A stretch of DNA of 64,000 bases from a virus. Its lineage: Duplodnaviria > Caudoviricetes. The first letter of the stretch is position 1. Every line of letters starts with the position of its first letter. The notes under the pieces were generated by a model. That model was not told where the DNA came from, searched no databases, and worked only from the letters and a program-made list of their open reading frames with translations. This document shows, in pieces, positions 520-62,257 of this stretch. Made by a program: the position numbers and the translations under genes. Where the stretch lies: the IMG/VR virus record IMGVR_UViG_3300038345_000087, positions 42,651 to 106,650 of that record; one strand, 5' to 3'.

Positions 520-1659
520 ATGCTTATCTCCTCCGTTGAAGAACTGCGTCTCTACGCTCCTGCCAATGCCATCGATCATATCGAAACACTGGCTGGTTTT
601 CTGGATAGTTCTGAACACGATTTCCTTGCTGAGAAATTGGGTCATCCTCTTCACGCTTCTCTCACGGAATACTATCAGAACCTACTCAACTCTGAAGATG
701 GCCTTGCTGATTATATCCAATCCATCACCAACGGTATAGAAATGCCTCCTTACGCACGCCTCTTGACTGTGGCACAGCGCATCGTGGCTTTTGATGCTCT
801 TGGTCGTGCTATTGACATGCAAGCCATCAGTGTGAATGGTGCTGGCATCAATATCTCCACGGCTGATGACTACGCAAAGGCTGATCGTGAAGCGGTGTCA
901 GCTTACAAAAGTACGTGCATCAAAGAGGCACATGCGGCTGTCAATCGCCTTTTGGTCCTTCTCGAAGAGTGGACGAAGGATGCGGTAGAAGATACGGATC
1001 CTGTGCCAGACGGCTCTTCTTCGGGTTCCGAGGAAGAGGAAGAACAGACCACTCCAGAACAGGAGAAATCAGAAATCGCCCGTCTTTGGCGTTCTTCTCG
1101 ATTTTTCTACCTTGCTGCTGGTCTCATTATTCCGTCGGCAATAGTCCTTCAAGACTATCTCAATATCTATGAGTCTCGTGAAAAATTCATCACTTTGCTT
1201 CCTGAACTTCGTACCATTCAGGAGGACATCATAGCACCCATTATTGGAGAGGATTTTATGGACTATCTTATCGCGTTCTCGCGTGATCCGAAACCTTCTT
1301 TAGAAGCCTCCGTGCAAGAAGGTGATTCCTCTGGTCTTTCAGAAGCAGACGTGCGCCTTCTTTCTCGCATCCTTCATCGACTTCGCAAGGCTGTAGCACG
1401 TCACTTGGAATCGCGTACCATGCAGATGAAGCTCACAGACCCGCGTCGCAATGCGGCCCATAATGAGGCGGTACAGTTGACAACGGATCTTGCAGACTAT
1501 ATCGCCGCTCATCAGAGCGACCTACCAACGGATGCCATCACTGCTTTCACCACCTCCCCATTGTATAAACCTACGGATGTGACCACGGAGGAAGAAGTAC
1601 CCTCTTTTGAGAACAATGCTCCCGATTCTGTCATTTTCGTTACTCCTGCTCTGTCCTAA
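520..1659 (+). CDS. Conserved phage protein, possible head-tail connector
   Basis: 379-aa ORF leading a structural operon; function inferred from context only. Confidence 0.5.
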   Translation: MLISSVEELRLYAPANAIDHIETLAGFLDSSEHDFLAEKLGHPLHASLTEYYQNLLNSEDGLADYIQSITNGIEMPPYARLLTVAQRIVAFDALGRAIDMQAISVNGAGINISTADDYAKADREAVSAYKSTCIKEAHAAVNRLLVLLEEWTKDAVEDTDPVPDGSSSGSEEEEEQTTPEQEKSEIARLWRSSRFFYLAAGLIIPSAIVLQDYLNIYESREKFITLLPELRTIQEDIIAPIIGEDFMDYLIAFSRDPKPSLEASVQEGDSSGLSEADVRLLSRILHRLRKAVARHLESRTMQMKLTDPRRNAAHNEAVQLTTDLADYIAAHQSDLPTDAITAFTTSPLYKPTDVTTEEEVPSFENNAPDSVIFVTPALS

Positions 1660-1672
1660 ATCATAAATCAAT

Positions 1673-4213
1673 ATGACTCAAGCCCGTCCAGCCGATTATT
1701 GGTTTTCCAATTCGGCTCTATATATCCAACTGAATGCCGCTGGCGACCCTAATTACATCCATGCCAACTGTTCGTCTGGCTCGGCTGTGTTGTGCTTTAT
1801 GCGCGGCATCAATGGTTTGGGCTATGATAACGGACACAACTATCGGCGATGGTCATTGATAGCGTCGCCGACGGTGTTCCACGATAATGCCGTTCGTTAT
1901 GTCTATATTGCCATCCCGAAAAGTGACGCAGTTGATGTGCCGGCACAAGTGGTGTTCCCTTCGGAGCTGATAGACCTATACGGCTGCAACGAAGGTGGTA
2001 CGCAAATTGGTTCAACGGATTACTTCTACATCTTCACTCAGGGCATCATTTCTCCTTCAGAAGTGAATGGTGTTCGCCAAAACCGCACATGGCAGCAGAA
2101 TGTGGATTGTGGCCAGTTGGCATCGGATGAAGCGATGGCGAATGGAGGCTCTGATTCATGGTGGGAATGGAACAGTGTCACGGACATGGTGAAGTTCCTG
2201 AAGGTGATTTCAGAGGCGACTTTCGATAAACTGACAGCTGCTTGGGCTTCCATCCGGCAACTTGTGTTGAACGGACACATTATCAATGGTGTTGCAGACC
2301 CAGAGACGGCTCAGGATGCCAACGCAGATGACAAGGTGGTGACTCCGGCATACGCTCAGACACAGTACCTATCTCGTACACATGATGACGCTGCGGCTGG
2401 TGATATCACCTTCAACAACTCCATCATGGTCAAAGGTGAGACCATACTGAAGCGTGCTGTCACAATCGGAGAATATGAGAAGGACATCCAAGTAGGTATA
2501 GGTTCACGCACGGGCGCAAAAATTCTTCCAGATGGTACAATCATCGCCCGTAATCTCGAATTATCCGAAAGCCTCCAAGTGCCGACTATCAAATACAACT
2601 CCATTGAGGTGTTGGCTGGCACACGATGGGATTCTGCCGGTAAGGGACGCATCAAGGAGATTATAGCAGTCGATGACAATGCTCATACATGTCAGTTTGT
2701 GCTCGATCTCAACGATGGTGAACCTGGTGAGTTTATTGTCAATGACATCCTTCGTGGCTTCTGGCATAACATGGACGGAACGAAGAATGCACAGAGTAAT
2801 TCTGATGACCGCCGTGGAAATATCACACGTGCGGGGTTCCAGTCCATCTATTGCCGTGTCATCGCCGTGGCGAATGTTGTTGAACGTACCACCGCTGACG
2901 CGACTATCTATATTGCCCAGGACAATCAGTACCTCGCTCAGGAGGGAGATAAGATATTGGCGAATGGACTTGTGACTGTGCAGATGCGTCAGTACAATAA
3001 TGGTTCCGATCCTGCAACGTGGTCGCCAACTCCTGAACAGTGGGCTGTCCTGTCTGTTTCCGGCTTCTTTGGCATCGACCATCCAGAACGTCAGAAGTTC
3101 TTTATCTACACCACGTCGTATATGGCTCGATTTGAGGGTGTCAACACGTGGGAATGGGAGGAACACTGCTTCATGGGAGGTTGGGGCGACTTGACTGGTT
3201 TTGCCATGATTCAGGAGGACGAACATGGTAATATCTCACGCAAGGAGTTTAATGGTGAAGGCTTCGTAACCAAGGATGCACATATATATGGTATTCTGGA
3301 ACAGTTCACCCGTTTCTCTGATCGCATCAACATACTTCTTTCCCGTCCAGATGGAACAATAGCGGATGGAGAGAATATGCGTGCTGACTTTGTTCTCGCA
3401 GACGTGGAGGGCAATATCATTTCGTCGGGCTACCGTCTTGACATCACCCGACAATCTGGTAATGCTCAGGCTGATGCTGCATGGAATACGGCGATGGCCA
3501 CTCGATATCCTGATGGCATACCATCGGCTCTGTATTTCCAGTTCTCCGACGTTCCCGAAAATGGTGCGGTTTATATTGTGGCGGCTTCTCGTCAGGTGCC
3601 AGATGGTACTTCTTATACAACCTATACGACATCGGCATCCTTTGTTCTTTCACGTGCCTACGCTCAGGAGGTTTTCATGGGTGAATGGAGTCCTTTGACC
3701 ACCTATACACGCAATGCTCGTACATATCCGACTGTGACCTATGGAGGTTGTAAGTGGTGGCTCGCTGTTTCAACATCCACAAACGACGAACCGCATCCGC
3801 TTTCTACGAAGTGGAAGATGGTTTATGGCATTAACGACCTCGAAATTCGCTTCTATAATGAGGCGGGCAATCGGATCACCTCTGCTGCTGCCTATCCTGG
3901 CTCTGTCAACATCTATCTGGAACCACGCCTTTTGTGTGGCCTCTATGACATCACGGAATATCTGACGGACTCCGATTGGTCGTGGGATCGTTATACGGGC
4001 AACTATGGCGAACAGACGGACACAAGAACTCCAGCTGATAAGCAGTCAGACCAGGGATGGCGCAATGCTCATTGGCCGTCACAACCAACCACACGCATTC
4101 TCCGTATCACCAACACTGACATGCCTCCTACATGGGGGTCTGGTGTAATGGTAAACTTCATCATAACTTGTAATTATGATGGTCTGATTATTTCTAATTC
4201 TGTCACCTTCTAA
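1673..4213 (+). CDS. Tail/baseplate structural protein
   Basis: 846 aa, beta-rich; YLSRTHDDAAAGDITF resembles a motif in Bacteroidales phage tail proteins; adjacent to tape measure. Confidence 0.6.
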   Translation: MTQARPADYWFSNSALYIQLNAAGDPNYIHANCSSGSAVLCFMRGINGLGYDNGHNYRRWSLIASPTVFHDNAVRYVYIAIPKSDAVDVPAQVVFPSELIDLYGCNEGGTQIGSTDYFYIFTQGIISPSEVNGVRQNRTWQQNVDCGQLASDEAMANGGSDSWWEWNSVTDMVKFLKVISEATFDKLTAAWASIRQLVLNGHIINGVADPETAQDANADDKVVTPAYAQTQYLSRTHDDAAAGDITFNNSIMVKGETILKRAVTIGEYEKDIQVGIGSRTGAKILPDGTIIARNLELSESLQVPTIKYNSIEVLAGTRWDSAGKGRIKEIIAVDDNAHTCQFVLDLNDGEPGEFIVNDILRGFWHNMDGTKNAQSNSDDRRGNITRAGFQSIYCRVIAVANVVERTTADATIYIAQDNQYLAQEGDKILANGLVTVQMRQYNNGSDPATWSPTPEQWAVLSVSGFFGIDHPERQKFFIYTTSYMARFEGVNTWEWEEHCFMGGWGDLTGFAMIQEDEHGNISRKEFNGEGFVTKDAHIYGILEQFTRFSDRINILLSRPDGTIADGENMRADFVLADVEGNIISSGYRLDITRQSGNAQADAAWNTAMATRYPDGIPSALYFQFSDVPENGAVYIVAASRQVPDGTSYTTYTTSASFVLSRAYAQEVFMGEWSPLTTYTRNARTYPTVTYGGCKWWLAVSTSTNDEPHPLSTKWKMVYGINDLEIRFYNEAGNRITSAAAYPGSVNIYLEPRLLCGLYDITEYLTDSDWSWDRYTGNYGEQTDTRTPADKQSDQGWRNAHWPSQPTTRILRITNTDMPPTWGSGVMVNFIITCNYDGLIISNSVTF

Positions 4214-4225
4214 CATCCCGATAAT

Positions 4226-7200
4226 ATGGATAAAAAGACCGAAGTTGTCATCACATGTAATTCCAAGCAACCTGTCGCCGCTGTGCGTGCGATGGAAACG
4301 GAATTGAAAAAACTGCAAGGCACTTACCAGCAGCTCGTACAGGCTGGCAAGGCTGGAACAGAACGTGCTAAGACGATGGCGCACGAGATCAAGGAACTCT
4401 CTATTGCTATCAAAGAGGGAAAGGCGAACATGGATAAAATCGTGTCCGTTACGAATAACCTTTCCCAATCTTCACTCTCTCAGTTGCAGCGTGCCCTTCG
4501 TCAGGTGAAGAAGGAAATGTCGCGTGTAAGTACGGATAGCCCGAAACTGGATGATTTGCGTATGAAGTATAAGGCTATCACGGACCAGATTAAGATTCTG
4601 AGTGGTGAAATGCTGAATATAAAGAAGCATATTGGCAACCTCTCTGGAGTGACGGATTCTTGGCTTCAGAAAGCCGTCCAGCAACAGAAAGCCCTGGTGC
4701 AACAGACACGTCAGGGAACATCTGAGTATAACAAGCAGATGAGCGTGCTGTCTCAGCTCTCGACTGAACAGGCACGTCGCGCTGTATCTACCATATCATC
4801 GGGTACTGCCAGTGCAGAACAACTACGTTCTGCCCGTGCTGCCCTCGTTTCTCATCGTGATATGATAGGCTCTGGTGGTATTCAAGTACAGGGCAATCAG
4901 GCAACGGAAATAGCTAAAATCAATGAGGAACTGAAGAAGGCTGATGCACAACTTGATACGATTGCTGGCAAGGAACAGAAATTGGTGTATTCAACACAGG
5001 AAATTGCAGATAAGGCGAATCAGATTATCATGGATCCCAAAAAGTTCACACCAAAGGAGATTGAAACGGCTCTGACTAATGTGAACAATAAATTGAAGGA
5101 AATTCCACTCAATGACCCGTTCCGAAAGCAGCTAAAACAGTCTGCAACACAGTTGAAGGCCATCCTCGATGGCGTGGATAAGGAACTTATCGACATCAAA
5201 AACTTGCTCCAACCGCAAAACCTCAAGAAAGCCTCTCTTGAACAGTTGAAGAATGCGGCTACTCAGTTGGAGAAGGAAATGGCGAAACTCAACCGTGATA
5301 CACAAGAGTATATCAATAAGAAAAGCCAACTGGCTACCATTCGCGGGGAGATAGATAAGGCTACGGGTTCTGTGCATAAACAATCGTCAGCATGGCAGAC
5401 TACACTTCGCAATATGTCGGCATACTTTGGTGCCTTCCAACTGTTCTCTATGGCTATCCAGAAGGTTCAGGCGTTTTTCCGTCTTAACCTCAAATTCTCG
5501 GATCAGTTGGCCGACATTCGTAAGGTGTCCGGCCTCGCTATGCAGGACATCAATAACCTTGCTAATTCTCTTGCAAAACTTGATACTCGCACTACCATTC
5601 AGGAACTTAACGAGATTGCTTATGCGGGTGCCAAATTGGGTATGGGTAAGTATGGCACCGCCGGATTGGAGCAATTCGTTCGTGCGGCTAACCAGGTGAA
5701 TGTGGCACTGAAAGAGGACTTGGGACAGGATGCACTCACGGCTCTCTCTAAGATTACGGAGGTCATGGGACTTATCCCGAAGATGGGCGTGGAGAAATCC
5801 ATGCTGGCTGTAGGTTCTGCCATGTTCCAGTTGTCTGCCACATCTACGGCGACATCGAACAATATCGTAGAGTTCTCAAAACGTCTCACGGGTATGGCTC
5901 GTACAGCCGGTATCACCACGGATCAGCTGCTTGCACTTGGTTCTGCTTCTGATGCTATGTACCTCATGCCCGAAGTCGCCAGTACTGCATTTAATAAACT
6001 TATCACCTCTCTTCAGACGAAGCACAACCTCATTGAACAAGAACTTCAGATTGAACCTGGTACCATCAACAACCTCTATTCTGCTGGCAAGACAATGGAT
6101 GCCATCGTTCTCATCCTCGAAAAGATGAAGGCGAAGGGTAACATGAATGCCCTGCAAGGTGTGTTCAAAGACCTCGGTTCTGAAGGTGCTCGTCTCGTCA
6201 ATGTCATGGTGACGATGAGCAAGAATGTAGATATGCTCAAAGATCACCTCGCTACATCTGAGGAAGCATTCTCAGAGGCGACGGCTGTCACTCAAGAGTA
6301 TGCTATACAGCAAGAAACGGCTAATGCTCTGATGGAGCGTGCTTCAAATATATGGGAAAAATCTTTTATCAATCCGAAGGGCGTAGATAATGTAAAGGAG
6401 TTAGCGCAACAATGGTATAACTTAACAAGGACTCTGACAGAATCTACATTTTTTATGGCACAGGCTAAGGCTGCTATTTGGCTTCTTATTAGTAGCATTA
6501 AAATTTTGATAGCATTACTTCCTGTGTTGATAGAGTTTTTCTTGTTTAGAGGAGCTTATGCTGCTATTATGGCCGTGGTTCGTGGTTTTGTCGCTCTTCG
6601 TACAGCAATTCAGGCGGCTACTGTGGCACAACATGGTTTGAATGCTGCTCAGAAGGCAAATCTATTTGGATTGATAGCGACCCTTATTGCTGCTGCTGTT
6701 AGTTGGTTTATCACGTATCGCGAAAAAGCAGAGGATGCAGCCGAAGCACAGCAAACCGTAAATCATGCTCTTGCTGATGCTCAAGCAGAGTATATGAAAA
6801 CTAAAAAGAAACTTGACGATTATGTTAAGGCTCTTGATGATGCTAATATATCTGAGGACACCCGTCAGAGATTGCTTCGTTCCTTTAATAAGGATTATAG
6901 GATTTATCTGGATAAGTTGGGTATAGAAGTCAATAGCGTAAATGATTTGAAAACGGCTTATGCCAAGTTGAATGATGAGATAAAGAAAAAGGCGTATTAC
7001 GAACTGCGTGAAAGAACGCTCCAATCATACGTTGGTGATGCACAGACGGAACAGGCTAACGCCATGATAGAGTTCCAGAAGGTGATGAAAAAGTATGGAC
7101 TGGATGTTAATGCTGATTATGTGGTGAACAATCAGCATTTGGGTATGGTTGGAGCCACGCGGAAACTTTTAGAAGAACATGCTGGCGCAAAGTTCGTTGG

Positions 7201-9952
7201 TAGGTATAGTAATGGTACGGGTTATAAAGATAATGTTATCTATAGAAATGGCAATTATGCTCAGATAGCTAAAAGTTCGCCTTGGGTGGTTAATACTCCG
7301 TGGATGGATGAGGTGGAAGAGATTTCAACAGCAGTTAATAATATAATAGCTGCTTATCGCGATGTTCGCAGTAAAGAAAAAGAGGTACATGACGCATTTG
7401 ATGGTTTGGTGGGTGATTGGGATGCAGATTTCAGATCTTTAACTGGTGATGAACCGCCTGGATCACTTGATAACAACGCCCCTGACAAAGACGCTCTTCG
7501 TCGTGCCAAAGAAGAAGCTGCTCGCCAGAAGAAACAATGGCGTGATGATCTCAAAGAGGCTCAGGACCGCGCACGCGCCATCATTGATAACATCAAGAAT
7601 TTCTACCAGCGTCAGATTAACGAGGTACTTCGTACTGCCAACGAACAGAATTGGGACACCTCACTCACGGATGCTGCCGTCCGTGCCGTGGAAGGTCGCA
7701 TGAACCTCGCCCTCTCCAATGCTCGCAAGGCGATTGCCGGTGTGCAAAACGATTGGGGCACATTCAAGACGGAAATGGCCGCTGATATGCGGGAAATGGC
7801 GGATGAAACGGGTTATAATGAGTCTCAGCTGTTGTTGAACAGCATTCAAGAGGCTGATCCAGATGCCATCCGTAACCTGATTATGCAACTGTCCTCTAAC
7901 CTCGAATTGCCTCAGAATGCAGCCATCGATGCCATCTGGAAGAATGCTTCGCACAATGAGACGAACATCGAGACAGCTGAACAGAAACGACGCAGGGAGG
8001 TACAGAAGCGACTCCTGGATGACAACTTCACTGGTAAGGTGGATAACGAATACACTAATTCGATGGAAACTCTCGGTTTCTTCGACCTCTCTTCCGAACA
8101 GGCTAACACGTTGCTTGCGGGAGGGGAGGATGCTGAAGCCTTGCTCCAACGTCGTGCTCAGGAAATAGGACAAGTGTTGCAACGTGCCCGTGAGACGAAC
8201 TTGTTTGCAATCCAAGATAAATACGGATTGATGGAGGCTTTGTTTGGTAAGGATTGGCAGTCACAACCGACCGAATTGGCACATGTGCTTGAACTGACTG
8301 GCGATGACCTTCAAGTGTTCTATCGCGAACTGATTAAATACTCTGACTCTTATACTGAAGCCCTCAAACGCTCCCGTGAACGCCAGAAGAAAATCCTTGA
8401 TGAGCAATGGATGAAAACTACCACATTCCATGCTAATGAGGATGCTCAGAAACAGACACAAATGCTTGCTTCTGGTGTGGGACAGTTTTCGGCGAATGTG
8501 CAACAGCAACAGGAGGCGGGCGAAAGCGTACCGCGTAAGGACACCTATGGCACGGCATCGTTTATCTCTTCGATGGGACATGACCCAGAGATAGATTCTT
8601 ACCGTTTGAAGATGGAGGCTGCTGCTGCTTATTATGACTTCCTCAAAGCGCATCAAGCGGATGCTGAAACACTCCGTGACGCAGAACAGGCAATCCTTCA
8701 GTCAGAAATGGAGTATGCTAAATCGGTGGCAGAACAGATGAAGCAGCGCATCAATGACATCTACGAACTTGCTGCTCCTATCGAGGACTTTGGTACAGAG
8801 GTGGGCGAAGCGTTCGCTACGATGACCGAGGATGCAGAAGAGGGACGTAAGGCCATGAAGAAGGCCATCGGCTCCATGATTAAAGCCTTTATGAAGCAGA
8901 CCGTGGAAATGTCAAAGGAGTACATCAAGCGTCGCATGATGCAGAAGATGAACGACAAACTGACATCCAAGGCCATGAAGAAGTCTATCAAACTGGAGAC
9001 TGGACTCGAACAGGATAAGCAAGATGCCGTTCTGGATGTGGCAAAGCAAGGCGGACAAGCTCGTACCTTCCTGAATGAAGAGGTGGAGGGCGATGTACTT
9101 CAGGCAAAGAAGGAAATCGGCAACGAGACTTTGATCACGCAACAGACACAGACGCAACAGGAGGTGCAGACCGAATCATCCAAGACTCAGGCGAACACCA
9201 CAATGGGTATTGCCAGTGGTGCGTCTAAGATCATCGGCTCGCTTGGTTGGTGGGGCATTCCGCTTATCGCCGTTATCACTGCCTTGCTGAATGGCCTCCT
9301 GTCTTTTGCCATGAGCAAGGTGTCCTCGCTTTTTGGTGGAGGCAAGGAGGCTGGTGGCGATGAAGGTCCTAACGTCAAACTGGCTTCTGGTATGTTGACA
9401 TACGACTCTGGTAACGTCCAAGCCTACGCGGGTGTTATCGATGGCAAGACTTACCCCGTTGTGGGTTCCGACGGCAAGGTGTATGCAGCAAAGGATGGCG
9501 GCGAACTTTCTACGGGCCTTGTGAAAGACCCCATCACAACGCTCATCAATGGTCAACCGGCTCTCGTAGCAGAAAAAGGCCCTGAAATGGTGATCGGTAG
9601 AGAAACAACAGCCGCAATGATGATGGCTCGGCCTGATATTATCGCTGAGATAGTGAAGTTCGATAAGAACCGCTCTGGCCAAACGTACCGTGCTTACGAT
9701 GCTGGTAATATCGCGGAACTGATAGCCAATGGTACTGTGCCAAACGGTTTACCCGTTGGGGAAAATGGCCTCACTCCCGAAGATATTGCCTCTCTCCGTT
9801 CTTCTCTGGATGGCTTTGCCGCTGTCATGGCTCTTATACAGAAGAATGGCTTGCACGTCAACAAGTTTGGTCGCGGGTCTGTCACAGAGGCTTCCGCATC
9901 CGGCGCAAAATTCATGCGTCAGAACTCCGGCGATCGTCTTTGGCGTGGGTAA
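4226..9952 (+). CDS. Tail tape measure protein
   Basis: 1908 aa, helical and Ala/Lys/Gln-rich; TP901-type core (FSDQLADIRKVSGL...NIVEFSKRL); hydrophobic segments. Confidence 0.9.
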   Translation: MDKKTEVVITCNSKQPVAAVRAMETELKKLQGTYQQLVQAGKAGTERAKTMAHEIKELSIAIKEGKANMDKIVSVTNNLSQSSLSQLQRALRQVKKEMSRVSTDSPKLDDLRMKYKAITDQIKILSGEMLNIKKHIGNLSGVTDSWLQKAVQQQKALVQQTRQGTSEYNKQMSVLSQLSTEQARRAVSTISSGTASAEQLRSARAALVSHRDMIGSGGIQVQGNQATEIAKINEELKKADAQLDTIAGKEQKLVYSTQEIADKANQIIMDPKKFTPKEIETALTNVNNKLKEIPLNDPFRKQLKQSATQLKAILDGVDKELIDIKNLLQPQNLKKASLEQLKNAATQLEKEMAKLNRDTQEYINKKSQLATIRGEIDKATGSVHKQSSAWQTTLRNMSAYFGAFQLFSMAIQKVQAFFRLNLKFSDQLADIRKVSGLAMQDINNLANSLAKLDTRTTIQELNEIAYAGAKLGMGKYGTAGLEQFVRAANQVNVALKEDLGQDALTALSKITEVMGLIPKMGVEKSMLAVGSAMFQLSATSTATSNNIVEFSKRLTGMARTAGITTDQLLALGSASDAMYLMPEVASTAFNKLITSLQTKHNLIEQELQIEPGTINNLYSAGKTMDAIVLILEKMKAKGNMNALQGVFKDLGSEGARLVNVMVTMSKNVDMLKDHLATSEEAFSEATAVTQEYAIQQETANALMERASNIWEKSFINPKGVDNVKELAQQWYNLTRTLTESTFFMAQAKAAIWLLISSIKILIALLPVLIEFFLFRGAYAAIMAVVRGFVALRTAIQAATVAQHGLNAAQKANLFGLIATLIAAAVSWFITYREKAEDAAEAQQTVNHALADAQAEYMKTKKKLDDYVKALDDANISEDTRQRLLRSFNKDYRIYLDKLGIEVNSVNDLKTAYAKLNDEIKKKAYYELRERTLQSYVGDAQTEQANAMIEFQKVMKKYGLDVNADYVVNNQHLGMVGATRKLLEEHAGAKFVGRYSNGTGYKDNVIYRNGNYAQIAKSSPWVVNTPWMDEVEEISTAVNNIIAAYRDVRSKEKEVHDAFDGLVGDWDADFRSLTGDEPPGSLDNNAPDKDALRRAKEEAARQKKQWRDDLKEAQDRARAIIDNIKNFYQRQINEVLRTANEQNWDTSLTDAAVRAVEGRMNLALSNARKAIAGVQNDWGTFKTEMAADMREMADETGYNESQLLLNSIQEADPDAIRNLIMQLSSNLELPQNAAIDAIWKNASHNETNIETAEQKRRREVQKRLLDDNFTGKVDNEYTNSMETLGFFDLSSEQANTLLAGGEDAEALLQRRAQEIGQVLQRARETNLFAIQDKYGLMEALFGKDWQSQPTELAHVLELTGDDLQVFYRELIKYSDSYTEALKRSRERQKKILDEQWMKTTTFHANEDAQKQTQMLASGVGQFSANVQQQQEAGESVPRKDTYGTASFISSMGHDPEIDSYRLKMEAAAAYYDFLKAHQADAETLRDAEQAILQSEMEYAKSVAEQMKQRINDIYELAAPIEDFGTEVGEAFATMTEDAEEGRKAMKKAIGSMIKAFMKQTVEMSKEYIKRRMMQKMNDKLTSKAMKKSIKLETGLEQDKQDAVLDVAKQGGQARTFLNEEVEGDVLQAKKEIGNETLITQQTQTQQEVQTESSKTQANTTMGIASGASKIIGSLGWWGIPLIAVITALLNGLLSFAMSKVSSLFGGGKEAGGDEGPNVKLASGMLTYDSGNVQAYAGVIDGKTYPVVGSDGKVYAAKDGGELSTGLVKDPITTLINGQPALVAEKGPEMVIGRETTAAMMMARPDIIAEIVKFDKNRSGQTYRAYDAGNIAELIANGTVPNGLPVGENGLTPEDIASLRSSLDGFAAVMALIQKNGLHVNKFGRGSVTEASASGAKFMRQNSGDRLWRG

Positions 9953-10036
9953 TTCGCAAGGAGTCGCCAAAGGCTCCCACATTGGGTTCTTTTCAATAAA
10001 AGTTCGGTATGGTTTTCCCATACCGTTCTTTTTTTT

Positions 10037-10070
10037 GTTCCGTTTACTTCCCCTGTTTCCCCTATCTTTG
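10037..10070 (+). promoter_or_regulatory. Putative phage late promoter
   Basis: GTTCCG-N20-TATCTTTG upstream of the 10093-ACP-KS genes. Confidence 0.7.
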
Positions 10071-10092
10071 CTTTTGAAATTTGAAATCTATT

Positions 10093-51611: not shown

Positions 51612-51643
51612 TGTGCCCGTTGGCTTGACCAACGGGAAAATTT

Positions 51644-51677: not shown

Positions 51678-51701
51678 CTTCAGAAATAAAAGTTTTCCAT
51701 C

Positions 51702-53558: not shown

Positions 53559-53622
53559 TGTGCTCGGTGGTTCGCCACCGAGAATAAATAGTAATTGGTA
53601 AATCGTCAAATAGTAAATAAAC

Positions 53623-54657: not shown

Positions 54658-54702
54658 TCACTGTGCCTCACGGTTCCCCCGTGAGGATAAATGTAGTAAG
54701 GT

Positions 54703-55305: not shown

Positions 55306-55319
55306 AAACGTAATACAAA

Positions 55320-55814
55320 ATGAATACAACTCTTCCTCGACTCATCGCCGCTTTCTTGGGCGTTATTTGGGCATACCTGGAGCCAACTATCCCGTATGCC
55401 GTCTTGTGTGTGTTTGCTGTGCTCATCGACTGCCTCACGGCATGGAGATTGAACCGACGTATTAAACAGAAGTACCCGAAAGCCAAAACGGACGGGAAAC
55501 TGAAATCTGCTCGCATGACGAAGATGATTTCAGACCTCGCTATCGTATGGCTCTGCATCCTGCTCGCTACGGGCGTGGATGAACACTTGCTCGGACACTT
55601 CGGAGGCTTGCACCTCGGACAGTATGTAGCTGCTATCTTTGTGCTGTGTACTGCCGTGAGCATACTCGAAAATGAGTCATCTTGCAATGGCTCTGCATGG
55701 GCACGTGCCGTACAGAAGATAGTAACCTCAAAAGTGTCCCGTCACCTCGATATTGATGAAGAGGAACTGAAAGAGATTATCCATCAGGATTCTAAAAAGA
55801 AATCAAAAAAGTAA
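55320..55814 (+). CDS. Holin
   Basis: TM segments, IDCLTA, SILEN, basic C-terminus. Confidence 0.8.
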   Translation: MNTTLPRLIAAFLGVIWAYLEPTIPYAVLCVFAVLIDCLTAWRLNRRIKQKYPKAKTDGKLKSARMTKMISDLAIVWLCILLATGVDEHLLGHFGGLHLGQYVAAIFVLCTAVSILENESSCNGSAWARAVQKIVTSKVSRHLDIDEEELKEIIHQDSKKKSKK

Positions 55815-55817
55815 GTT

Positions 55818-56390
55818 ATGGAAAACTTCAACTATCAGGAACCATGCTGCATCGAACGTAGCCTACCTATTCTCATCCGTCAGTACGGATGGTTGCCTTG
55901 GCAGTCGAATGGTGATATCACTATCGACAAAATCCTCAAGGCGGTAAGTCACCTCGCGGGAAATAGCATCGCCATTTCCTTGTGTATTCCAGTCATTGAC
56001 ATCGACGTTTTACGCATCCTTTCATGGTACCACAAACGTGGATGGCTCACAAGCCTGGAAATTGTCACGTCGGAGGATCAGACTGAACTCATCCGTGCAG
56101 AACTGCCAAAAGAATTGTCCGTGAACATCATTTCGCACGCATCGGTTAAAGAGACCTCTCCGCTGCTGGTGATTAAAGGTGAAAAGCAGACGGTCATCGT
56201 GCAAGGCCCGTTGCATACGACCATCGCATCTACTCCGATTCGTGAGAGCTTCATAACCTATGCGGGCAATGACCAGGAACGTATCGCACAGTTCACGGCG
56301 ACGCTCTCCTCTCTCATCCATGTTGCTACTCGCAAGAAAACGAACAAAAAGAAAGCCACCGTGTCCGATGGTTCTCCGTCGGATGAATAA
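55818..56390 (+). CDS. Hypothetical protein
   Basis: Packed ORF ending in an in-frame hairpin copy. Confidence 0.6.
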   Translation: MENFNYQEPCCIERSLPILIRQYGWLPWQSNGDITIDKILKAVSHLAGNSIAISLCIPVIDIDVLRILSWYHKRGWLTSLEIVTSEDQTELIRAELPKELSVNIISHASVKETSPLLVIKGEKQTVIVQGPLHTTIASTPIRESFITYAGNDQERIAQFTATLSSLIHVATRKKTNKKKATVSDGSPSDE

Positions 56391-56401
56391 CTCTGTTCAT
56401 T

Positions 56402-56977
56402 ATGAATATCTTTGCTAAAATACGCGAAAAGCGTGCTCAGAAAGCACAACTCCGACGCTTCGGACAGTTTGCAAACGTATTCGCTTCTCTCCAGCGTCTT
56501 GAAAAGAGTGGACTCCTGGCATGGGAAGCGAAGTCGCGCCGTCTCTTTATTGCACAACCGCTTGCTGTGGTGATGTTGGCACAAGGGTATGACCGCTGGC
56601 GTAACTTCCTCAATAATGTGTTCCTATACCACATGTATAACCTCCAAAACCGTCAGTGGCAGGATCACATTATCAATGAACAGGCGAAGGCCGTCCGTCA
56701 ACGCAAAAAGGAGGTGGTGGTCTTGACGAAAGCAGAAACAGAACGCATCCGTCGTGCTGTGCGTGACAATATCCCTGCTGAAGCAGTTGAATTGCCTCCT
56801 ATCAAACCTTTTGAGTTCTTCATTATCGCTGATACCGCCACTGTGACCGACGCTTCTCCGTCGGAGCAACCCAAGGCTGAAATCACATGGGTGGGCGAAT
56901 ATGACCCAGATACCGGCACACTTGATATGGCCGAATGGAAAGACATCAAACATGTCATCAAAGATGGAAACAAATAA
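56402..56977 (+). CDS. Hypothetical protein
   Basis: Packed ORF. Confidence 0.6.
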   Translation: MNIFAKIREKRAQKAQLRRFGQFANVFASLQRLEKSGLLAWEAKSRRLFIAQPLAVVMLAQGYDRWRNFLNNVFLYHMYNLQNRQWQDHIINEQAKAVRQRKKEVVVLTKAETERIRRAVRDNIPAEAVELPPIKPFEFFIIADTATVTDASPSEQPKAEITWVGEYDPDTGTLDMAEWKDIKHVIKDGNK

Positions 56978-57656
56978 CGATTACTTCACCCGCTTTCAGA
57001 ACCTTTGCCTCTCCATTCTTGCACAGTCTGATAACTGTCAGGAGTCGCAAGATATGTTCCGTGCCACAAAGACCATACCTGAATTGGTGTCGGCGTGGCA
57101 ACGCTATTGGGCGGGACTGCTTCACGAGGTGCCAGAACAGGTTATAAAAGCCTTCTCGCAGTTCTATCCAACGTATCGTGATGACATCATCTGTGCTGGT
57201 GTGTACTACAACGAGGCTCCTCCTATTGACCACATCACACCTTCCATCATCCTCATTGGTGATGCTCCTGAAGCCACGGTGCCAGAAGGTTCTCATTCGG
57301 GTGTCTCTCCATTGGAAGTCTTTGGCCGTCACCGCGTCTATGTGCTTGGGAATCTACCCATCATCGCACATGACAACTGCAATGTCTTGGTGAACTCTTC
57401 ACGTTCCAACGTGACACTTCACGATAACTGCCGTTGTAACCTCGAAGCTGGAAACGTCATTCTTCACGACCGCTCTATGCTCAATGGCTCAGGAAATGTC
57501 ACATGCTACGATTCCACAACCATCTTGCTCATGGGAGGAACTTTGCATGACAAAGGACACCTCGATATAACAGCCTATAATGATGCTGTCATTCACACTT
57601 TCACATCCCGCAAGATTACTCTCAATGACAAAGCAAAAATCTACTTCGATAAATGA
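56964..57656 (+). CDS. Hypothetical protein with beta-helix-like C-terminus
   Basis: Repeating AHDNCNV / LHDNCRC / LHDRS / CYDST / AYNDA. Confidence 0.6.
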   Translation: METNNDYFTRFQNLCLSILAQSDNCQESQDMFRATKTIPELVSAWQRYWAGLLHEVPEQVIKAFSQFYPTYRDDIICAGVYYNEAPPIDHITPSIILIGDAPEATVPEGSHSGVSPLEVFGRHRVYVLGNLPIIAHDNCNVLVNSSRSNVTLHDNCRCNLEAGNVILHDRSMLNGSGNVTCYDSTTILLMGGTLHDKGHLDITAYNDAVIHTFTSRKITLNDKAKIYFDK

Positions 57657-60364
57657 ATAGTCATATCGCCATAACAGCCCAGAAGAACGGTAAGCAGATT
57701 CCGCTCAACTTACCCGACGATTTCAGCATTGACATCGACGATCAGAACCCGTTGTTTAACGATAACGAAATGTTCTCATATCCCGTGCAGATGCCGATGG
57801 AGGGTAATCGTTTCTTGCTTGGTAACATCGATGACCCTAATAACATCGAACGTCCAGTAGGATTGGAGCACACGAAGATGCGTATCGTCGTGGATAACCA
57901 ACCGTTCCGCTCTGGCACGCTTGTTACTTCTGAGGATGAAGAGATTGATGGCGCACTGACGATGAACATAACGGCTTCAGAACATTCTATTGATGACCTC
58001 ATAGGACAACTGACATGCCGTGATGTGCCGGTCAAAGACAAAATACTCATTGGAGAAAAGATTGGCGATGTGATAGCATCGGTGGATTACAAATACAAAG
58101 TGACCGTAAAGTTTGATGGTAAGAAGGGCGACCGTGTGGAATATCCGACGGCAAAGGCGACTTCTAAGGCTGTGTTTACACCACAAGCTCTCGGTTTTTC
58201 ATGTCCTGGTGAATGTTACACGGAATCTGGCACGAAGGAGAAAGCTCTGAAGAAGGAAGAGGTGTCGTATGGCAATGGTAACAGAGTGGTTGTACCGCGC
58301 ATCAAGACATCTTACATCAACGTCTCTGAACCGTACCCAAACAAGCCTTATTGTAATGCCCGTATCGCGTATCTCCACCACGGCATTGATGACGATGGAA
58401 AGACTACGGACACAGCTTCGCCAAAGGATCAGAAACTCGGTCCTAACGACCATTGGCCATATTGGGTGCTGGAGGCAGACCGCCAACAGTCTGGCATCTG
58501 CTTCTATGTGCTGTATTTCCTCGACTGTCTCTTTGCTCACCTTGGCGTGTCTTTCGACAACAGCGAATTGATGGCCGTGGAGGATATGCGTCACCTCTGC
58601 TTCTTTACTACTCACTGCAAGTACGATGAAGAGTATAAGCATGACACGGGCTATTGGGATAAGGCTACGCATACACAGACTATCTCCTCTTCTGCTTTTG
58701 ATGCCCTCTCAGGACAGCAGCAAGCACAATATGAGCGAAAACCATATTTCACAACTATTGAGGAAATAAATACATGGCTTTCGTCTCGTGGATGTGGAGC
58801 ACAGTTTGAGTTTCCTGATGGCAAAGGGCTTCAGGTGAACGATGTGGACTATACCGACGTACACGGAAATCGTCAGATTGTGAGCGTCGGTAATAATGGC
58901 GTAGTGTCTATCACTGGTGAACCGATTAACGCCGTGAAGAAGGTCTCGGCTAACGTCATGCTGATGTATGCCAACTCCGATAACTTCCCAGAAGAGAGTG
59001 TGCAGACCGTTCTCGATTCGCTCTTTAACTCTTTCGGAATCAAGTTCGATTACAACTACGAACAGAAACATGTTCGTGCTTATTTTGTTCGTAATGTATT
59101 CCGCTCAACAGAGGAACCTATCGATTTCCCTGGTCGTGTGATCTCGATGCACAAAATAGCGGAGAAGATAACAGGTGTGCGCGTATGCTATTCTGAAGAG
59201 AGTTCCAGCAAGGAACAGAAGCAGAACATTAAGGAGGGTAAGCGTGACTACAACACAGATTATGACTATATCGATTATCCGAAACAGTCAACTGTGACGG
59301 ATAAAACATACGCTGAGATCTTCCGTACACCGAAACAGATAGGTGCCAGCACCAATATGACGTGTTACATTGACCTGACTACGGGCAATGCTTACCGTAT
59401 CAAAGTGAATGGTGATGCTGAAACTGCTGGTGAATGGAATCCGGCTCTCTTTGAGGTGGGACAGTTCAAAGGTGTGGAGATCGGCGACTGCTCTGAGTTG
59501 AACGAGGACTTTGTGGAAGAACTGGCTTCTGATTTCCAACCTGTGCCTTTTAATGATGTCAACTACCAGACGGAAATAACTATGGCTGAAGGCACATTGT
59601 CGGATGCTAATCTTGGTACGGTCAATGTGAATACAAAACGCGCTGAACCTATCCTTGCAGCTTATGTGGACGAAGATTTTGAGCATGAGTTTATCGAACA
59701 GCGTATCAGACAGACATTGGCGGCTGAAATTGTAGAGTACTCCATCGACCAAGTGATGAAGTTGGTGGAGAACTACGACCCATCCGACACAGACGATGGC
59801 AATAGCCCGCTTCAGTCCGTGGATTGGGGCCTTGCTATCGCCATCATGCGCGGAGGTGGTACGGATGCCACGTTGCAGACTTATGATTTCAACTACGATG
59901 GCTTCAATAACAGCAAATGGCGCACGGTGGCTGGTGTCTATGCACTCACGTCAGACTCTCTCGACATGTGGGGCAATGAGTATGACTATAACGGCGTGCA
60001 GCCTGGTATAGGTTCTGGAGAACGCTTCTCGCTCAAAATCCGTGCATGGAAACAGCCGGAATGGGCAGACGGTCCATTGGTCAATGCGGACATCATCGAT
60101 CCTCAGACGGGCGAAATTGAGAAGAAAATCAAGTCGCGTGGCCTCTTTGACACCTTCCTCTCTGAGTATGCTAATTTCCTCCTGAAGCGTCGTAAATATC
60201 GCATCTGCATCGAATGCTCTGCCGCTCAGGTAGCATCCGTTCCTGAACATTGGGCGCGTCGCTTCCGTATCAATGGTATGGTGGGATTCATCAACAAACT
60301 ATCCTATAACGTGTCTGCTGCTGAAGGTCTCAATAACCTTGAAGTGGAGTTCTTTGTCTTGTAA
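57653..60364 (+). CDS. Large tail/baseplate protein (903 aa)
   Basis: N-terminal IDIDDQNPLF...FSYP motif of Bacteroidales phage tail proteins. Confidence 0.6.
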   Translation: MNSHIAITAQKNGKQIPLNLPDDFSIDIDDQNPLFNDNEMFSYPVQMPMEGNRFLLGNIDDPNNIERPVGLEHTKMRIVVDNQPFRSGTLVTSEDEEIDGALTMNITASEHSIDDLIGQLTCRDVPVKDKILIGEKIGDVIASVDYKYKVTVKFDGKKGDRVEYPTAKATSKAVFTPQALGFSCPGECYTESGTKEKALKKEEVSYGNGNRVVVPRIKTSYINVSEPYPNKPYCNARIAYLHHGIDDDGKTTDTASPKDQKLGPNDHWPYWVLEADRQQSGICFYVLYFLDCLFAHLGVSFDNSELMAVEDMRHLCFFTTHCKYDEEYKHDTGYWDKATHTQTISSSAFDALSGQQQAQYERKPYFTTIEEINTWLSSRGCGAQFEFPDGKGLQVNDVDYTDVHGNRQIVSVGNNGVVSITGEPINAVKKVSANVMLMYANSDNFPEESVQTVLDSLFNSFGIKFDYNYEQKHVRAYFVRNVFRSTEEPIDFPGRVISMHKIAEKITGVRVCYSEESSSKEQKQNIKEGKRDYNTDYDYIDYPKQSTVTDKTYAEIFRTPKQIGASTNMTCYIDLTTGNAYRIKVNGDAETAGEWNPALFEVGQFKGVEIGDCSELNEDFVEELASDFQPVPFNDVNYQTEITMAEGTLSDANLGTVNVNTKRAEPILAAYVDEDFEHEFIEQRIRQTLAAEIVEYSIDQVMKLVENYDPSDTDDGNSPLQSVDWGLAIAIMRGGGTDATLQTYDFNYDGFNNSKWRTVAGVYALTSDSLDMWGNEYDYNGVQPGIGSGERFSLKIRAWKQPEWADGPLVNADIIDPQTGEIEKKIKSRGLFDTFLSEYANFLLKRRKYRICIECSAAQVASVPEHWARRFRINGMVGFINKLSYNVSAAEGLNNLEVEFFVL

Positions 60365-60366
60365 CT

Positions 60367-60894
60367 ATGGCTGTTCAAATAGAAAAACCTCGCCGACCTG
60401 TCAACGTCGTTCTTCGTTCCTTCGCCCGCCAGTCTGTGCAGACGTTGGAACAGAACTTCCGTACACAGCACATTTGGCCAACGGAAATTTACCCTGGCTT
60501 CGCTGCTGTCAACGAGGCACGTAAACGCCGTGGTGAATGGTTCGCAACAGGTCGTGGTGCTCGCTCGTTTACCTATGAAGTGATGTCCGCTGCTCAGGGT
60601 AACGAGACTATCCGCATCGAATATAACCACTACCTTCGTTTCGTGGATATGGGTGTCGGTGCAGGACGTTCTTTTGAACAGGTAGAACATAGCCGTAAGG
60701 CTCGTTATCGCCGTCGCTATGTCTCAATATGGGCTTCACGTGATGGCGACACTCATCGCCCTGCTATAATGATGGAAATGCGACACCTCGAAGGACGTAT
60801 GCAACGCTATCTCGAAGATTATTACGGACGCGAAATCTCCGTGCAGATCTATCGTACATTCTCTGGACTCCATGTCATCAATCTTGATATATAG
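60367..60894 (+). CDS. Basic structural protein, possible neck/tail completion
   Basis: TG.G.RS...Y.RFVDMGVG motif. Confidence 0.5.
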   Translation: MAVQIEKPRRPVNVVLRSFARQSVQTLEQNFRTQHIWPTEIYPGFAAVNEARKRRGEWFATGRGARSFTYEVMSAAQGNETIRIEYNHYLRFVDMGVGAGRSFEQVEHSRKARYRRRYVSIWASRDGDTHRPAIMMEMRHLEGRMQRYLEDYYGREISVQIYRTFSGLHVINLDI

Positions 60895-60905
60895 TGTTCC
60901 TTATT

Positions 60906-61223
60906 ATGCCCAGAATACAACCATCAACTTCTTTTCAGAACCTCCGAAATTATATGGAGAAATTCGCATGGCGCGATAAGCGTACTGGCCTAATGACTAC
61001 TGGTTACAATCCGCCTCAGAGTGCTGCCGACATCTGCCGCGTACCATTTCACGTGAAATATGTAACAGGTAAAGGCCGTCTTGAAGAAGGAAATGCCATT
61101 TCTCTCCGCGTAGATCGTCGCCGGCATCAACGTACCATCAAATTCATAGAATCGGGTGAAATCCGCATCATTCGTGATTATCTCGTCATTGAAGTAGATG
61201 GCACCCGTGTTATTACCCATTAA
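60906..61223 (+). CDS. Hypothetical protein
   Basis: Packed ORF. Confidence 0.55.
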   Translation: MPRIQPSTSFQNLRNYMEKFAWRDKRTGLMTTGYNPPQSAADICRVPFHVKYVTGKGRLEEGNAISLRVDRRRHQRTIKFIESGEIRIIRDYLVIEVDGTRVITH

Positions 61224-61244
61224 GCCACCATCAAAGCCACTGTG

Positions 61245-61273
61245 CCCGAAGGTTCTCCTTCGGGTCTCTTTTT
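61245..61273 (+). terminator. Hairpin element copy with U-tract
   Basis: cccgaagg-ttct-ccttcggg then tctcttttt. Confidence 0.65.
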
Positions 61274-61345
61274 GTCCTTCTTCCTCCTGAAATCTCTTAT
61301 CTTTGCCTCGTTTTCTCAAGAAAAGGTGATTTTTTTTCGCTTTTT

Positions 61346-61377
61346 CTTGCATTTATATCAGTTTCTTCGTACCTTTG
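61346..61377 (+). promoter_or_regulatory. Host-type promoter for the HTH gene
   Basis: CTTG-N20-TACCTTTG; a second -7 box lies at 61298-61305. Confidence 0.55.
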
Positions 61378-61402
61378 CGCCAAAATAATAGAAAGTGTAA
61401 GT

Positions 61403-61789
61403 ATGAGTAATTCACAGAAACTTCAGACAAAGGACAAAGAACTGGTGCCTGAGTGGTACATCGCAAAGCGTATCATCCGCTCAAAAGGCTTTACATACGG
61501 CCAACTCGCCGAAAAACTCGGTGTGTCCGTGACCACCATTCACGACCTCTGCAACTTCCCGCCTAACGTCGTTCGCGTCAAGCAGCTTGCAGATGCTATC
61601 GGATGCTCCTTTTTTGACTTCTTCGATTTCAACCAGGCATCAAGCACCAACGATGGTGCCACCGTTCCCGATGGATCACCATCGGGTAGTCCCGTAAGTG
61701 GCGATGCTGGTGCTGCCGAAACACCTCAGTCTGGATTTACATGTCCTCACTGTGGGCAACCCCTCTTCTTAACGACTTCCCCTGAATAG
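61403..61789 (+). CDS. XRE-family HTH regulator with C-terminal CPHCG motif
   Basis: KGFTYGQLAEKLGVSVTTI...KQLADAIGC. Confidence 0.85.
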   Translation: MSNSQKLQTKDKELVPEWYIAKRIIRSKGFTYGQLAEKLGVSVTTIHDLCNFPPNVVRVKQLADAIGCSFFDFFDFNQASSTNDGATVPDGSPSGSPVSGDAGAAETPQSGFTCPHCGQPLFLTTSPE

Positions 61790-61834
61790 TGTTCCCATCG
61801 GTTTCCCCGATGGGTTTCCCTTAATCTATCGATT

Positions 61835-62257
61835 ATGTTCTCCACTCCAGAAGCAACACCATACAGCGACCCAAACGAGCACGTAGAACCTTACATCGCT
61901 CCTTCTCTCTTTCCATCTGAGGAGAGTCCTGTATGTTGCGATGACATCGCAACTGAAGCCACCGTGTTAGAAGGTTCTCCTTCAGGTTCTTCCGTTGCTT
62001 CTGAAGAAACACCCCCTTATGTCATCCCGTATTCCGAAGTATTAAACCGCAAATATGGCTTAGAGGCCACCATGCCAGAAGGTTCTCCTTCTGCTCCTCC
62101 TTCTACATTTCGCAAGATCATCGTGAACATCTGCATCGTTCTCGCCTTCGTCGCCAACATTATCTTTTTCCTTCCTCTCTGCCTCCTCGGTCTCTTCGGT
62201 CTCTCCAAACATCCATTCCTCGGCTACTTCATGTTCCGCGACATGCTCCGCCGTTAA
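61835..62257 (+). CDS. Acidic low-complexity protein with C-terminal TM anchor
   Basis: Two in-frame hairpin copies; hydrophobic C-terminus. Confidence 0.55.
   Translation: MFSTPEATPYSDPNEHVEPYIAPSLFPSEESPVCCDDIATEATVLEGSPSGSSVASEETPPYVIPYSEVLNRKYGLEATMPEGSPSAPPSTFRKIIVNICIVLAFVANIIFFLPLCLLGLFGLSKHPFLGYFMFRDMLRR

Follow-up and report, generated by a model that had tools for sequence, protein, structure and literature searches.

How does one and the same short hairpin come to lie in frame within many unrelated proteins of a bacteriophage, and also between its genes? This question is raised by a 64,000-nucleotide (nt) stretch of rumen phage DNA, hereafter the window, which comprises positions 42651-106650 of the 106,650-bp IMG/VR record IMGVR_UViG_3300038345_000087, a record judged to be complete. 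The element concerned is a unit of about 30 nt, present in about 31 copies in the window and about 35 in the 106.6-kb genome. A first, sequence-only reading of the window had listed 13 peptides encoded by this hairpin in unrelated proteins, all of which are present, and had offered three explanations: an inserted element that survives only in tolerant frames, as the palindromic elements of Rickettsia do, selection that installs a signal in genes, or a role of the peptide itself. The evidence favours the first of these, by virtue of clean indels, pairing preserved at synonymous sites, in-frame copies in host genes, and readings of the same DNA off frame in an Arg-rich loop or antisense. Hence, the hairpins probably constitute a repeat family of the kind of the repetitive extragenic palindromic (REP) sequences and the Rickettsia palindromic elements (RPEs), common to rumen bacteria of the Prevotella group and their phages, in which the copies within genes represent tolerated insertions.

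The hairpin unit, its strand and its pairing

Each unit (29-36 nt) consists of a leader, CACNGTG or AGTGTG, an 8-bp stem and a loop, TTCT or TTTCC, the AGTGTG form of the leader being an overlap with a TAG stop codon. The stem is G+C-rich and variable in sequence, with its pairing kept. In type A units, GCCACNGTG is followed by CCNGANGG, the loop TTCT and CCNTCNGG, while in type B the leader (C/T)A(C/G)TGTG precedes an 8-bp stem, the sequence of which is free, with a loop of 5 nt, e.g. TTTCC. A scan of the window with the 4227 families of Rfam gave no match at the gathering threshold.

Almost all genes of the window lie on the + strand, and so do the hairpins. The strict 29-nt type A consensus, with up to three mismatches allowed, matches nine times on the + strand and never on the - strand, compared with 0.00 matches expected from 100 shuffles. 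Two covariance models, R1 (type A, built from 22 copies) and R2 (type B, 11 copies), returned matches only on the + strand throughout the genome at the cut-off of E<0.05, and a combined scan of the whole 106.6-kb genome by position weight matrix and pairing score (cut-off 12 or more) found 35 copies on the + strand and one on the - strand. The same applies to 24 related loci in IMG/VR, which encode a 903-aa protein 59-82% identical to that of the window: 187 copies lie on the + strand versus one on the - strand, and all covariance-model matches are on the + strand. Taken together with the relatives, about 220 phage copies are oriented with the surrounding genes, versus two that are not. Apart from one copy at 39.7 kb and one weak match, all copies of the genome are confined to the window and the record's first 5 kb. 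The latter region holds a 1153-aa open reading frame (ORF) outside the window (genome G000, positions 1521-4982; L033), with four more in-frame copies at 3900-4680 that read PATVSAAPVPAD, SDSVPAGSASGE, ENPAPSGSPAGS and SATVPAGSASGK, so that the block rich in these elements extends over the record's ends.

In the stem alignments, 88% of type A and 97% of type B cells are paired, many double (compensatory) changes are seen, and neither shuffles nor slid registers came near the observed pairing. Where the unit is read as V-P-x-G-S-P-x'-G, the residue pairs x/x' (D-S, E-S, S-L, A-A, V-T, C-Q and I-M) are exactly those that base complementarity predicts and are chemically senseless, so that the conserved object is a nucleic-acid hairpin rather than a peptide. 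Synonymous sites, which the sequence-only reading had named as a check, lead to the same result. With amino acids held fixed and codons redrawn from the phage's own usage, pairing in 62 coding copies proved to be preserved far beyond the codon-usage expectation (428 paired positions observed versus 338 +/- 8), and also when copies were picked by leader and loop only, which avoids circularity (117 versus 99 +/- 4). Neither outcome named in the sequence-only reading as a refutation was seen, i.e. peptides kept by orthologues with synonymous changes that break the pairing, or a lack of both indels and conserved pairing. At an orthologous site in the gene family of ORF 56964-57656, 90% of the pairing is kept in nine phages, and between lineages one U-A to A-U flip, affecting an E/D and a Pro codon, as well as one G-C to C-G flip occurred. 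It had also been claimed that coding copies are the more degenerate ones; indeed, they average 6.8 of 8 pairs with 4 of 17 stems perfect, compared with 7.6 pairs and 13 of 16 perfect stems between genes.

Copies within genes

The window contains 14 coding copies, all on the + strand, listed here by coordinates and by the position of the leader GTG.

997-1025 (GTG 1003), +: degenerate type A copy reading PVPDGSSSG, acidic linker of ORF 520-1659, an indel versus sister phages
1306-1334 (GTG 1312), +: degenerate copy reading SVQEGDSSG, ORF 520-1659, an 18-aa indel versus the element-free phage G047
9731-9760 (GTG 9737), +: type B copy reading TVPNGLPVG, near the C-terminus of the tape measure protein (4226-9952)
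10583-10611 (GTG 10589), +: copy in another frame reading SHRARWFPFG, Arg-rich loop of the conserved ORF 10081-11220
17711-17739 (GTG 17717), +: copy reading ATVSEASSSG, ORF 17558-18421
29456-29484 (GTG 29462), +: copy reading ATVPAASAEG, head maturation protease-like ORF 28322-30070, an indel versus phage G048
52305-52334 (GTG 52311), +: type B copy reading GSVLSGLPTE, variable linker of ORF 51702-53558
55255-55283 (GTG 55261), +: copy reading ATVSDSSPSD, C-terminal tail of ORF 54703-55305
56355-56383 (GTG 56361), +: copy reading ATVSDGSPSD, C-terminus of ORF 55818-56390
56837-56865 (GTG 56843), +: copy reading ATVTDASPSE, ORF 56402-56977
57273-57301 (GTG 57279), +: copy reading ATVPEGSHSG (residues 104-113), ORF 56964-57656
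61658-61686 (GTG 61664), +: copy reading ATVPDGSPSG, ORF 61403-61789
61958-61986 (GTG 61964), +: copy reading ATVLEGSPSG, ORF 61835-62257
62066-62094 (GTG 62072), +: copy reading ATMPEGSPSA, ORF 61835-62257

The leader GTG had been described as always read in one frame. This applies to 13 of the 14 copies, which read as xTVPxGSPx'G, but not to the copy at 10589, which was absent from the earlier list and is shifted by one frame. In the genome as a whole, GTG serves as a codon in 17 of 19 coding copies, the second off-frame copy, itself a weak match, lying beyond the window in a small and questionable ORF. In the relatives, 77 copies are in the GTG-codon frame versus 18 in others, several of the 18 being artefacts of crude ORF calling. 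The ORF that carries the off-frame copy, 10081-11220, is conserved in all five sister phages searched; one relative reads RRCARCFSSG at the site, and the loop is Arg-rich in insert-free phages, too.

Orthologue alignments place every coding copy in a gap-rich, low-complexity linker or in a C-terminal tail, in agreement with the earlier description of their location. This is joined by an AlphaFold2 model of 56964-57653 (230 aa, 17-sequence alignment; mean predicted local distance difference test score (pLDDT) 86.7, predicted template modelling score (pTM) 0.82), which predicts a helical domain followed by strand-rich repeats, and in which the sole segment with a pLDDT below 50 comprises residues 105-112, within the element peptide at 104-113. 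The position in a loop or linker is thus modelled for one protein and read from gap-rich alignment columns for the others. The label 'portal', which the earlier reading had attached to ORF 51702-53558, was not confirmed, PHROGs giving no match and Pfam one weak match below the cut-off, nor was the label 'HTH' for ORF 61403-61789, with which no family library was searched.

Turnover among sister phages

Alignment with orthologues, likewise proposed as a check, reveals the peptides to be clean indels against sister phages that are devoid of the element. In these element-free phages, the peptide is absent as a gap of 9-18 residues at every window site tested, i.e. two sites in ORF 520, the protease, ORF 10081 and the genes at 51702, 54703, 55818, 56402, 56964, 61403 and 61835. 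Type A copies number zero in G047-G049, which are 94-96% complete and have the same gene set, 13 in G045 and 29 in G046, in each case on one strand, and in element-rich phages the same coding site is often occupied by a copy whose stem differs. Across lineages, one and the same gene junction is occupied by type A, by type B, by a hairpin of another family (TATG-TCGCTGT-nnn-ACAGCGA) or by nothing, and an identical 20-nt hairpin, CCCAGCCG-TTCT-CGGCTGGG, recurs at four non-orthologous junctions of one 18-kb locus. This turnover and the recurrence of the identical hairpin suggest that units are copied and replaced rather than inherited site by site.

A second hairpin family was observed as well, comprising T(G/A)TG, TTGCGAT, 3 nt and ATCGCAA, and is found in the window at 33-59, 10362-10393, 19951-19982, 27854-27880 and 61928-61954. 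In the relatives L013 and L020-L026, it stands right after stop codons, and sister phages carry it at stops where the phage of the window has type A or type B. Within window ORFs, it occurs in frame and reads VCCDDIAT or VCCNSVAT.

Copies in bacteria and in other rumen phages

One genome per species from about 185,000 species was searched for the exact pattern CACNGTGCC-N4-GGTTCTCC-N4-GG, which yielded 118 stretches compared with about 17 expected by chance (our own estimate, from 18 fixed bases and 1.2 x 10^12 positions). Among the 80 listed of these 118, 63 derive from rumen Prevotella, Prevotellaceae, Bacteroidaceae or Bacteroidales metagenome-assembled genomes (MAGs) and have mostly fully or nearly fully paired stems. 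The other 17 stem from unrelated high-GC taxa, with mostly unpaired 'stems', and fit the chance number. Of 70 strong host copies, 42 lie in long open frames in frame 0 (ATVPxGSPxG), and several host copies are antisense in real genes, where they read PxGEPx'GTVA in frame. The carriers include UvrA, two ClpB-type ATPases, the alanyl-tRNA synthetase AlaRS, two TrpD (anthranilate phosphoribosyltransferases), glycosidases of the families GH2 and GH10, and a rhamnosidase.

For TrpD, an 11-residue insert in three species is absent from 22 relatives aligned across the site, which are up to 94% identical, and corresponds in the DNA to a clean 33-nt gap; the stems of two carriers differ by a compensatory C-G to U-A change. 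The insert in UvrA occupies a length-variable loop. Host MAGs contain 3-21 copies each of a narrow pattern (up to two mismatches) versus 0-1 of a control pattern, and each host genome has its own dominant stem. Tandem arrays were noted in some host MAGs: L114 (2082-2154) and L115 (531-555) hold 24-nt partial repeats of leader, 5' arm and loop, reading PATVPDGSPATVPDGSP..., and L096 (3922-3986) holds three full units with a 32-nt period. These arrays suggest slippage at the hairpin.

Beyond the close relatives, 27 IMG/VR stretches of other rumen phages contain the pattern in 1-5 copies each, on one strand per locus save for one odd locus; so few copies per phage provide no test of the strand. 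The locus L166 (IMGVR_UViG_3300031998_003402), in which genes run in both orientations, is an integrative element with an integrase as well as primase-like and AAA genes, situated beside a host Mfa2 gene, and its related hairpins (leader CAG-N-GCG, loop TTCCC) are antisense to verified genes. Since they represent a different subfamily in an integrative element, they are uninformative on the orientation of the phage copies.

Copies between genes

The intergenic copies located in the window, all on the + strand, are listed below.

366-394, +: type A with T-tract, followed by a second hairpin at 408-437 and a promoter-like motif at 445-490
9996-10025, +: type B with long T-tract, 3' of the tape measure gene, followed by a promoter-like motif at 10034-10079
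25524-25553, +: type B, GTG 6 nt past the stop of ORF 24814-25524
28318-28351, +: hairpin with stem CCCGCTGG/CCAGCGGG and T-tract, upstream of the protease gene
31399-31428, +: type B, 14 nt past the stop of ORF 30117-31391
32102-32135, +: hairpin with the stem of 28318-28351 and T-tract
37114-37143, +: type B, 7 nt past the stop of ORF 36736-37113
40189-40218, +: type B, between the template repeat of a diversity-generating retroelement (DGR) and the reverse transcriptase gene
41728-41757, +: type B, GTG 6 nt past the stop of the reverse transcriptase gene
42461-42490, +: copy with leader AGTGCG, 6 nt past the stop of ORF 41799-42461
51607-51636, +: type B with TAG-T-GTG, 2 nt past the stop, followed by a promoter-like motif at 51641-51686
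53554-53582, +: copy with TAG-T-GTG and TTCG loop, 2 nt past the stop of ORF 51702-53558
54657-54686, +: type B, GTG 6 nt past the stop of ORF 53623-54657
61236-61264, +: type A, exact consensus, with T-tract
61785-61814, +: type B, 2 nt past the stop of ORF 61403-61789
62774-62803, +: hairpin with T-tract, after ORF 62278-62742

The spacing between stop codon and leader is narrowly defined. In the relatives, exactly 6 nt separate the stop from GTG in 28 of 40 intergenic copies (TAA/TAG-[C/T]CAC-N-GTG), and among the 16 copies of the phage of the window, four are found at 6 nt, three at 2 nt (TAG-T-GTG) and eight within 7 nt. With GTG 2 or 6 nt past the stop, the stem starts 5 or 9 nt after it. 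About seven copies are followed by a T-tract (372, 414, 10002, 28326, 32110, 61242 and 62780) and take the top ranks in a terminator scan; the T-tract is absent at most other copies, e.g. 25530, 31405, 37120, 53560 and 54663, and at coding copies. Moreover, a hairpin lies within about 45 nt 5' of four of five promoter-like motifs (445, 10034, 44214 and 51641). These 46-nt motifs, TTTGTTCCG, about 21 nt and TATCTTTGC, are found at 445-490, 10034-10079, 36174-36219, 44214-44259 and 51641-51686, each directly 5' of a gene group, and by their look are presumably promoters of the Bacteroidota type with a phage-specific upstream element. The fixed stop spacing, the T-tracts and the pairing with promoters tip the balance, if narrowly, towards the view that at least the intergenic copies act as functional gene-end hairpins. 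The earlier proposal that selection installs a signal is favoured by strand bias and stop spacing as far as intergenic copies are concerned, and coding copies may be either pure passengers or weak signals.

The DGR comprises a reverse transcriptase gene (40361-41728, phrog_1423) and three 117-nt repeats of 85% identity, namely a likely template repeat at 39983-40099, a variable repeat at 39465-39581 at the 3' end of the tail protein gene 38385-39635, and a remote variable repeat at 20299-20415 in the small ORF 20008-20514. DGR targets use a downstream hairpin, and a link of the present hairpins to the DGR was considered but seems unlikely, as the copies do not follow the variable repeats and their number is far too high.

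Proposed mechanism and alternative explanations

As regards the mechanism, copies would be made and lost within lineages. A copy landing in an ORF would add about ten codons and persist only where the protein bears the resulting peptide without harm, i.e. in a disordered linker, in a loop at the surface or in a C-terminal tail. With its small, polar and proline-rich make-up, the usual reading, xTVPxGSPx'G, would account for the frame bias, while other readings may be tolerated in suitable places, such as HRARxFSxG in an Arg-rich loop and antisense PxGEPx'GTVA in host genes. The intergenic phage copies, which are co-oriented with transcription, would most likely serve as RNA hairpins that end or protect transcripts.

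Several observations weigh against an explanation by insertion and tolerance. The strand bias in phages exceeds what pure insertion and filtering would predict, given that hosts tolerate antisense in-frame copies; insertion may be specific for one strand, or else a function at the RNA level would preserve the phage copies. Orthologous coding copies stay paired although the proteins are only about 60% identical, which resembles maintenance rather than neutral decay. Stem similarity within a lineage exceeds that between lineages only modestly, in a comparison confounded by near-duplicate loci. No copies reside at 5-39 kb of the genome, though + strand genes, beside a block of - strand genes, occur there. 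No mobilising enzyme was found: PF01797 (Y1/RAYT transposase, the REP-associated tyrosine transposase) is present in two of four host MAGs, which are incomplete, and absent from the phage, and the two host PF01797 loci, again in incomplete MAGs, carry no copy of the element. Finally, exact insertion boundaries and target-site duplications were not definable from the TrpD comparison.

A more far-reaching version, to which we lend limited credence, combines both aspects: the hairpin would be an actively copied, strand-specific mini-element moving between rumen phages and hosts of the Prevotella group and, at the same time, the gene-end signal of the phage, with its folding controlled by the terminating ribosome, given a stem 5-9 nt from the stop. 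If true, a translation-coupled terminator or stabiliser system would have been made from a selfish repeat, and phages, acting as vectors, would introduce insertions of ten residues into the housekeeping proteins of their hosts.

It is similarly unlikely that selection maintains every copy, including those within genes, as a cis-acting RNA or transcription signal that some factor of the host or the phage recognises, be it a terminator, an attenuator, a pause site or a processing site. In such a system, leader and hairpin would couple transcription to translation, and copies would have been installed in tolerant ORFs, thereby subdividing long late transcripts. The strand bias, with phage copies on the strand of the surrounding genes, and the confinement to one contiguous genome block are in line with this notion, yet sister phages that share the gene order either lack copies altogether or show unrelated hairpins at the same junctions, which would render the signal dispensable, and in hosts the copies occupy housekeeping genes in frame, some of them in antisense orientation. 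Conservation of leader and loop would also suit a signal, as would the constant distance of 2 or 6 nt between stop and hairpin, which places the hairpin within a terminating ribosome's footprint; on the other hand, most coding copies have no T-tract, and no candidate factor was found. Similarly, pairing is kept at synonymous sites and by compensatory changes at orthologous coding sites, but coding copies are less well paired than intergenic ones. A specific candidate of this kind, an ops-like site for RfaH/UpxY, was rejected: the leader GGTAGTGTG resembles ops, GGCGGTAGCGTG, but here dozens of gene-end sites exist and the hairpin lies downstream. In Bacteroides, opsX elements are single sites in leader regions, with a pause hairpin upstream of the ops element (PMC11685472).

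That some coding copies are old intergenic gene-end hairpins, absorbed by stop loss or gene fusion, is still less probable. The copies at 55261 and 56361, within the last 10-20 codons of short ORFs, would suit such an origin, as would the free variation among orthologues of the tails past the element. The copy at 52311 keeps the leader GGTAGTGTG, which contains a TAG stop at intergenic sites, and divides two parts of a 618-aa protein; however, all 20 of 20 orthologues of ORF 51702-53558 are full length (594-673 aa), so that any fusion must be old. Moreover, the mid-protein copies in the tape measure protein and the protease show no remnant of a stop codon, and fusion cannot account for the host copies in TrpD, UvrA, AlaRS and ClpB, which lie in the interior of housekeeping proteins of one or several domains.

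The notion that the peptide is the conserved object, serving as a linker module or as a tag for cleavage, modification or docking, with the hairpin as a by-product of its codons, is hardly credible and, as a claim of the sequence-only reading, unsupported: the near-constant frame (17/19) and the Pro/Ser/Gly-rich composition, like that of natural linkers, would suit it, but variable residues covary by Watson-Crick rules and not by chemistry, identical units occur between genes, the same DNA is read in another frame or antisense in real genes, pairing exceeds the synonymous-codon expectation, and the peptide is missing from orthologues in sister phages and related bacteria.

With the hairpins read as a repeat family whose coding copies are tolerated, one such family ties a phage clade to its likely rumen host clade, and could help as a sequence marker to assign rumen phages to hosts of the Prevotella group. 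Ten-residue loops are added to structural phage proteins and to the essential host enzymes UvrA, ClpB, AlaRS and TrpD, while the gene ends of the phage are marked with single-nucleotide regularity. The family also offers a tractable system for the copying of repeats, the absorption of insertions by proteins and the domestication of repeats by phages as expression signals. With respect to annotation, peptides of the ATVPxGSPxG type should not be taken for a protein motif.

Genomic setting and further repeats

Besides a 1908-aa tape measure protein, the window encodes a head-maturation-protease-like protein, tail proteins and a reverse transcriptase, and the remaining genome contains genes for a ligase, methyltransferases and a sliding clamp. 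A megablast search of window positions 54,000-63,000 against the GenBank phage collection gave no match. Within a 2120-aa protein (44274-50636), internal repeats of about 56 nt occur at 45792, 46512 and 47979; orthologue lengths from 725 to 2038 aa suggest that this protein is modular and resembles a tail fibre. A repeat with a period of 8 nt, (A/T)(A/T)TTCAT(N), forms runs at 11210-11276, 32203-32269 and 63324-63382, which stand just 5' of start codons and in the gene-poor region at 62.8-63.6 kb, and could constitute a leader or a protein-binding array. At 63851-63991, three tandem 45-nt repeats of 92-100% identity lie within an open-ended ORF at the end of the window, and a similar repeat in the relative L020 reads VLDVCPSVCLKG.

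Comparison with known systems

In-frame palindromic repeats are a textbook case of selfish DNA that shapes proteins, and are known from few bacterial lineages. A literature search for in-frame palindromic repeats in phage genomes and for REP elements in Prevotella returned no description. The RPEs, reportedly termed 'selfish DNA in protein-coding genes' by Ogata and co-workers in 2000 and reviewed in brief in PMC3733652, resemble the present hairpins in that palindromic repeats lie in frame in many unrelated genes, including housekeeping genes, and also between genes, and in that the insert is absent from orthologues and located in loops away from the core of the fold. On the contrary, RPEs measure about 100-150 bp (30-50 aa) and are confined to Rickettsia, whereas this unit of about 30 nt (10 aa) occurs in Bacteroidota and their phages. 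The two are unrelated in sequence, and the phage copies of the unit are restricted to a single strand and tied to stop codons.

According to Di Nocera et al. (2013, PMC3733652), REPs lie just downstream of ORFs but also within genes, notably those for excinuclease and tRNA synthetases, and these intragenic cases concern the same classes as UvrA and AlaRS here. Like the present units, REPs are hairpins of 20-40 nt that bear a tag, form several subfamilies and occur many times in a genome, mostly situated just 3' of ORFs in co-orientation, and REPs are co-transcribed. Their tag, GTAG or CGTC, abuts the stem, whereas here CACNGTG or AGTGTG stands 0-1 nt from it, and the only occurrences of GTAG, which never abuts the stem, arise from a TAG stop in front of TGTG (alignments A1-A3). 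Furthermore, the units described here are single and not inverted dimers, occur in a virus as well, and no RAYT link was found. Hence, the family is a variant of the REP/RPE kind and a member of neither family, since the GTAG/CGTC tag is missing, no RAYT link was found and the size is unlike that of RPEs.

Intrinsic terminators share with about seven copies the G+C-rich hairpin, the T-tract and the position at the ends of gene groups; most copies, however, have no T-tract, and ordinary terminators feature neither a shared leader and loop nor in-frame coding copies. In cluster A mycobacteriophages, the repressor binds to stoperators, which are 13-bp duplex sites of fixed sequence. As in the present phage, dozens of short asymmetric sites adopt one orientation to transcription, often near stops and occasionally within genes, but the stems of the present hairpins vary in sequence and conserve their pairing instead.

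Finally, the promoter-terminator cassettes of T4-type phages known as PeSLs are intergenic composite stem-loop/promoter motifs proposed to drive module shuffling by recombination (PMC2839356, PMC4122927). Unlike the hairpins described here, PeSLs have been reported neither within the reading frames of proteins nor in genes of the host. Both, however, are repeated stem-loops at phage gene boundaries that are in part paired with promoters, here putative ones, and subject to turnover between related phages, the counterpart in the present genome being the hairpin followed by the TTTGTTCCG...TATCTTTGC motif at four sites. PeSL cassettes are the nearest phage precedent for the intergenic copies.

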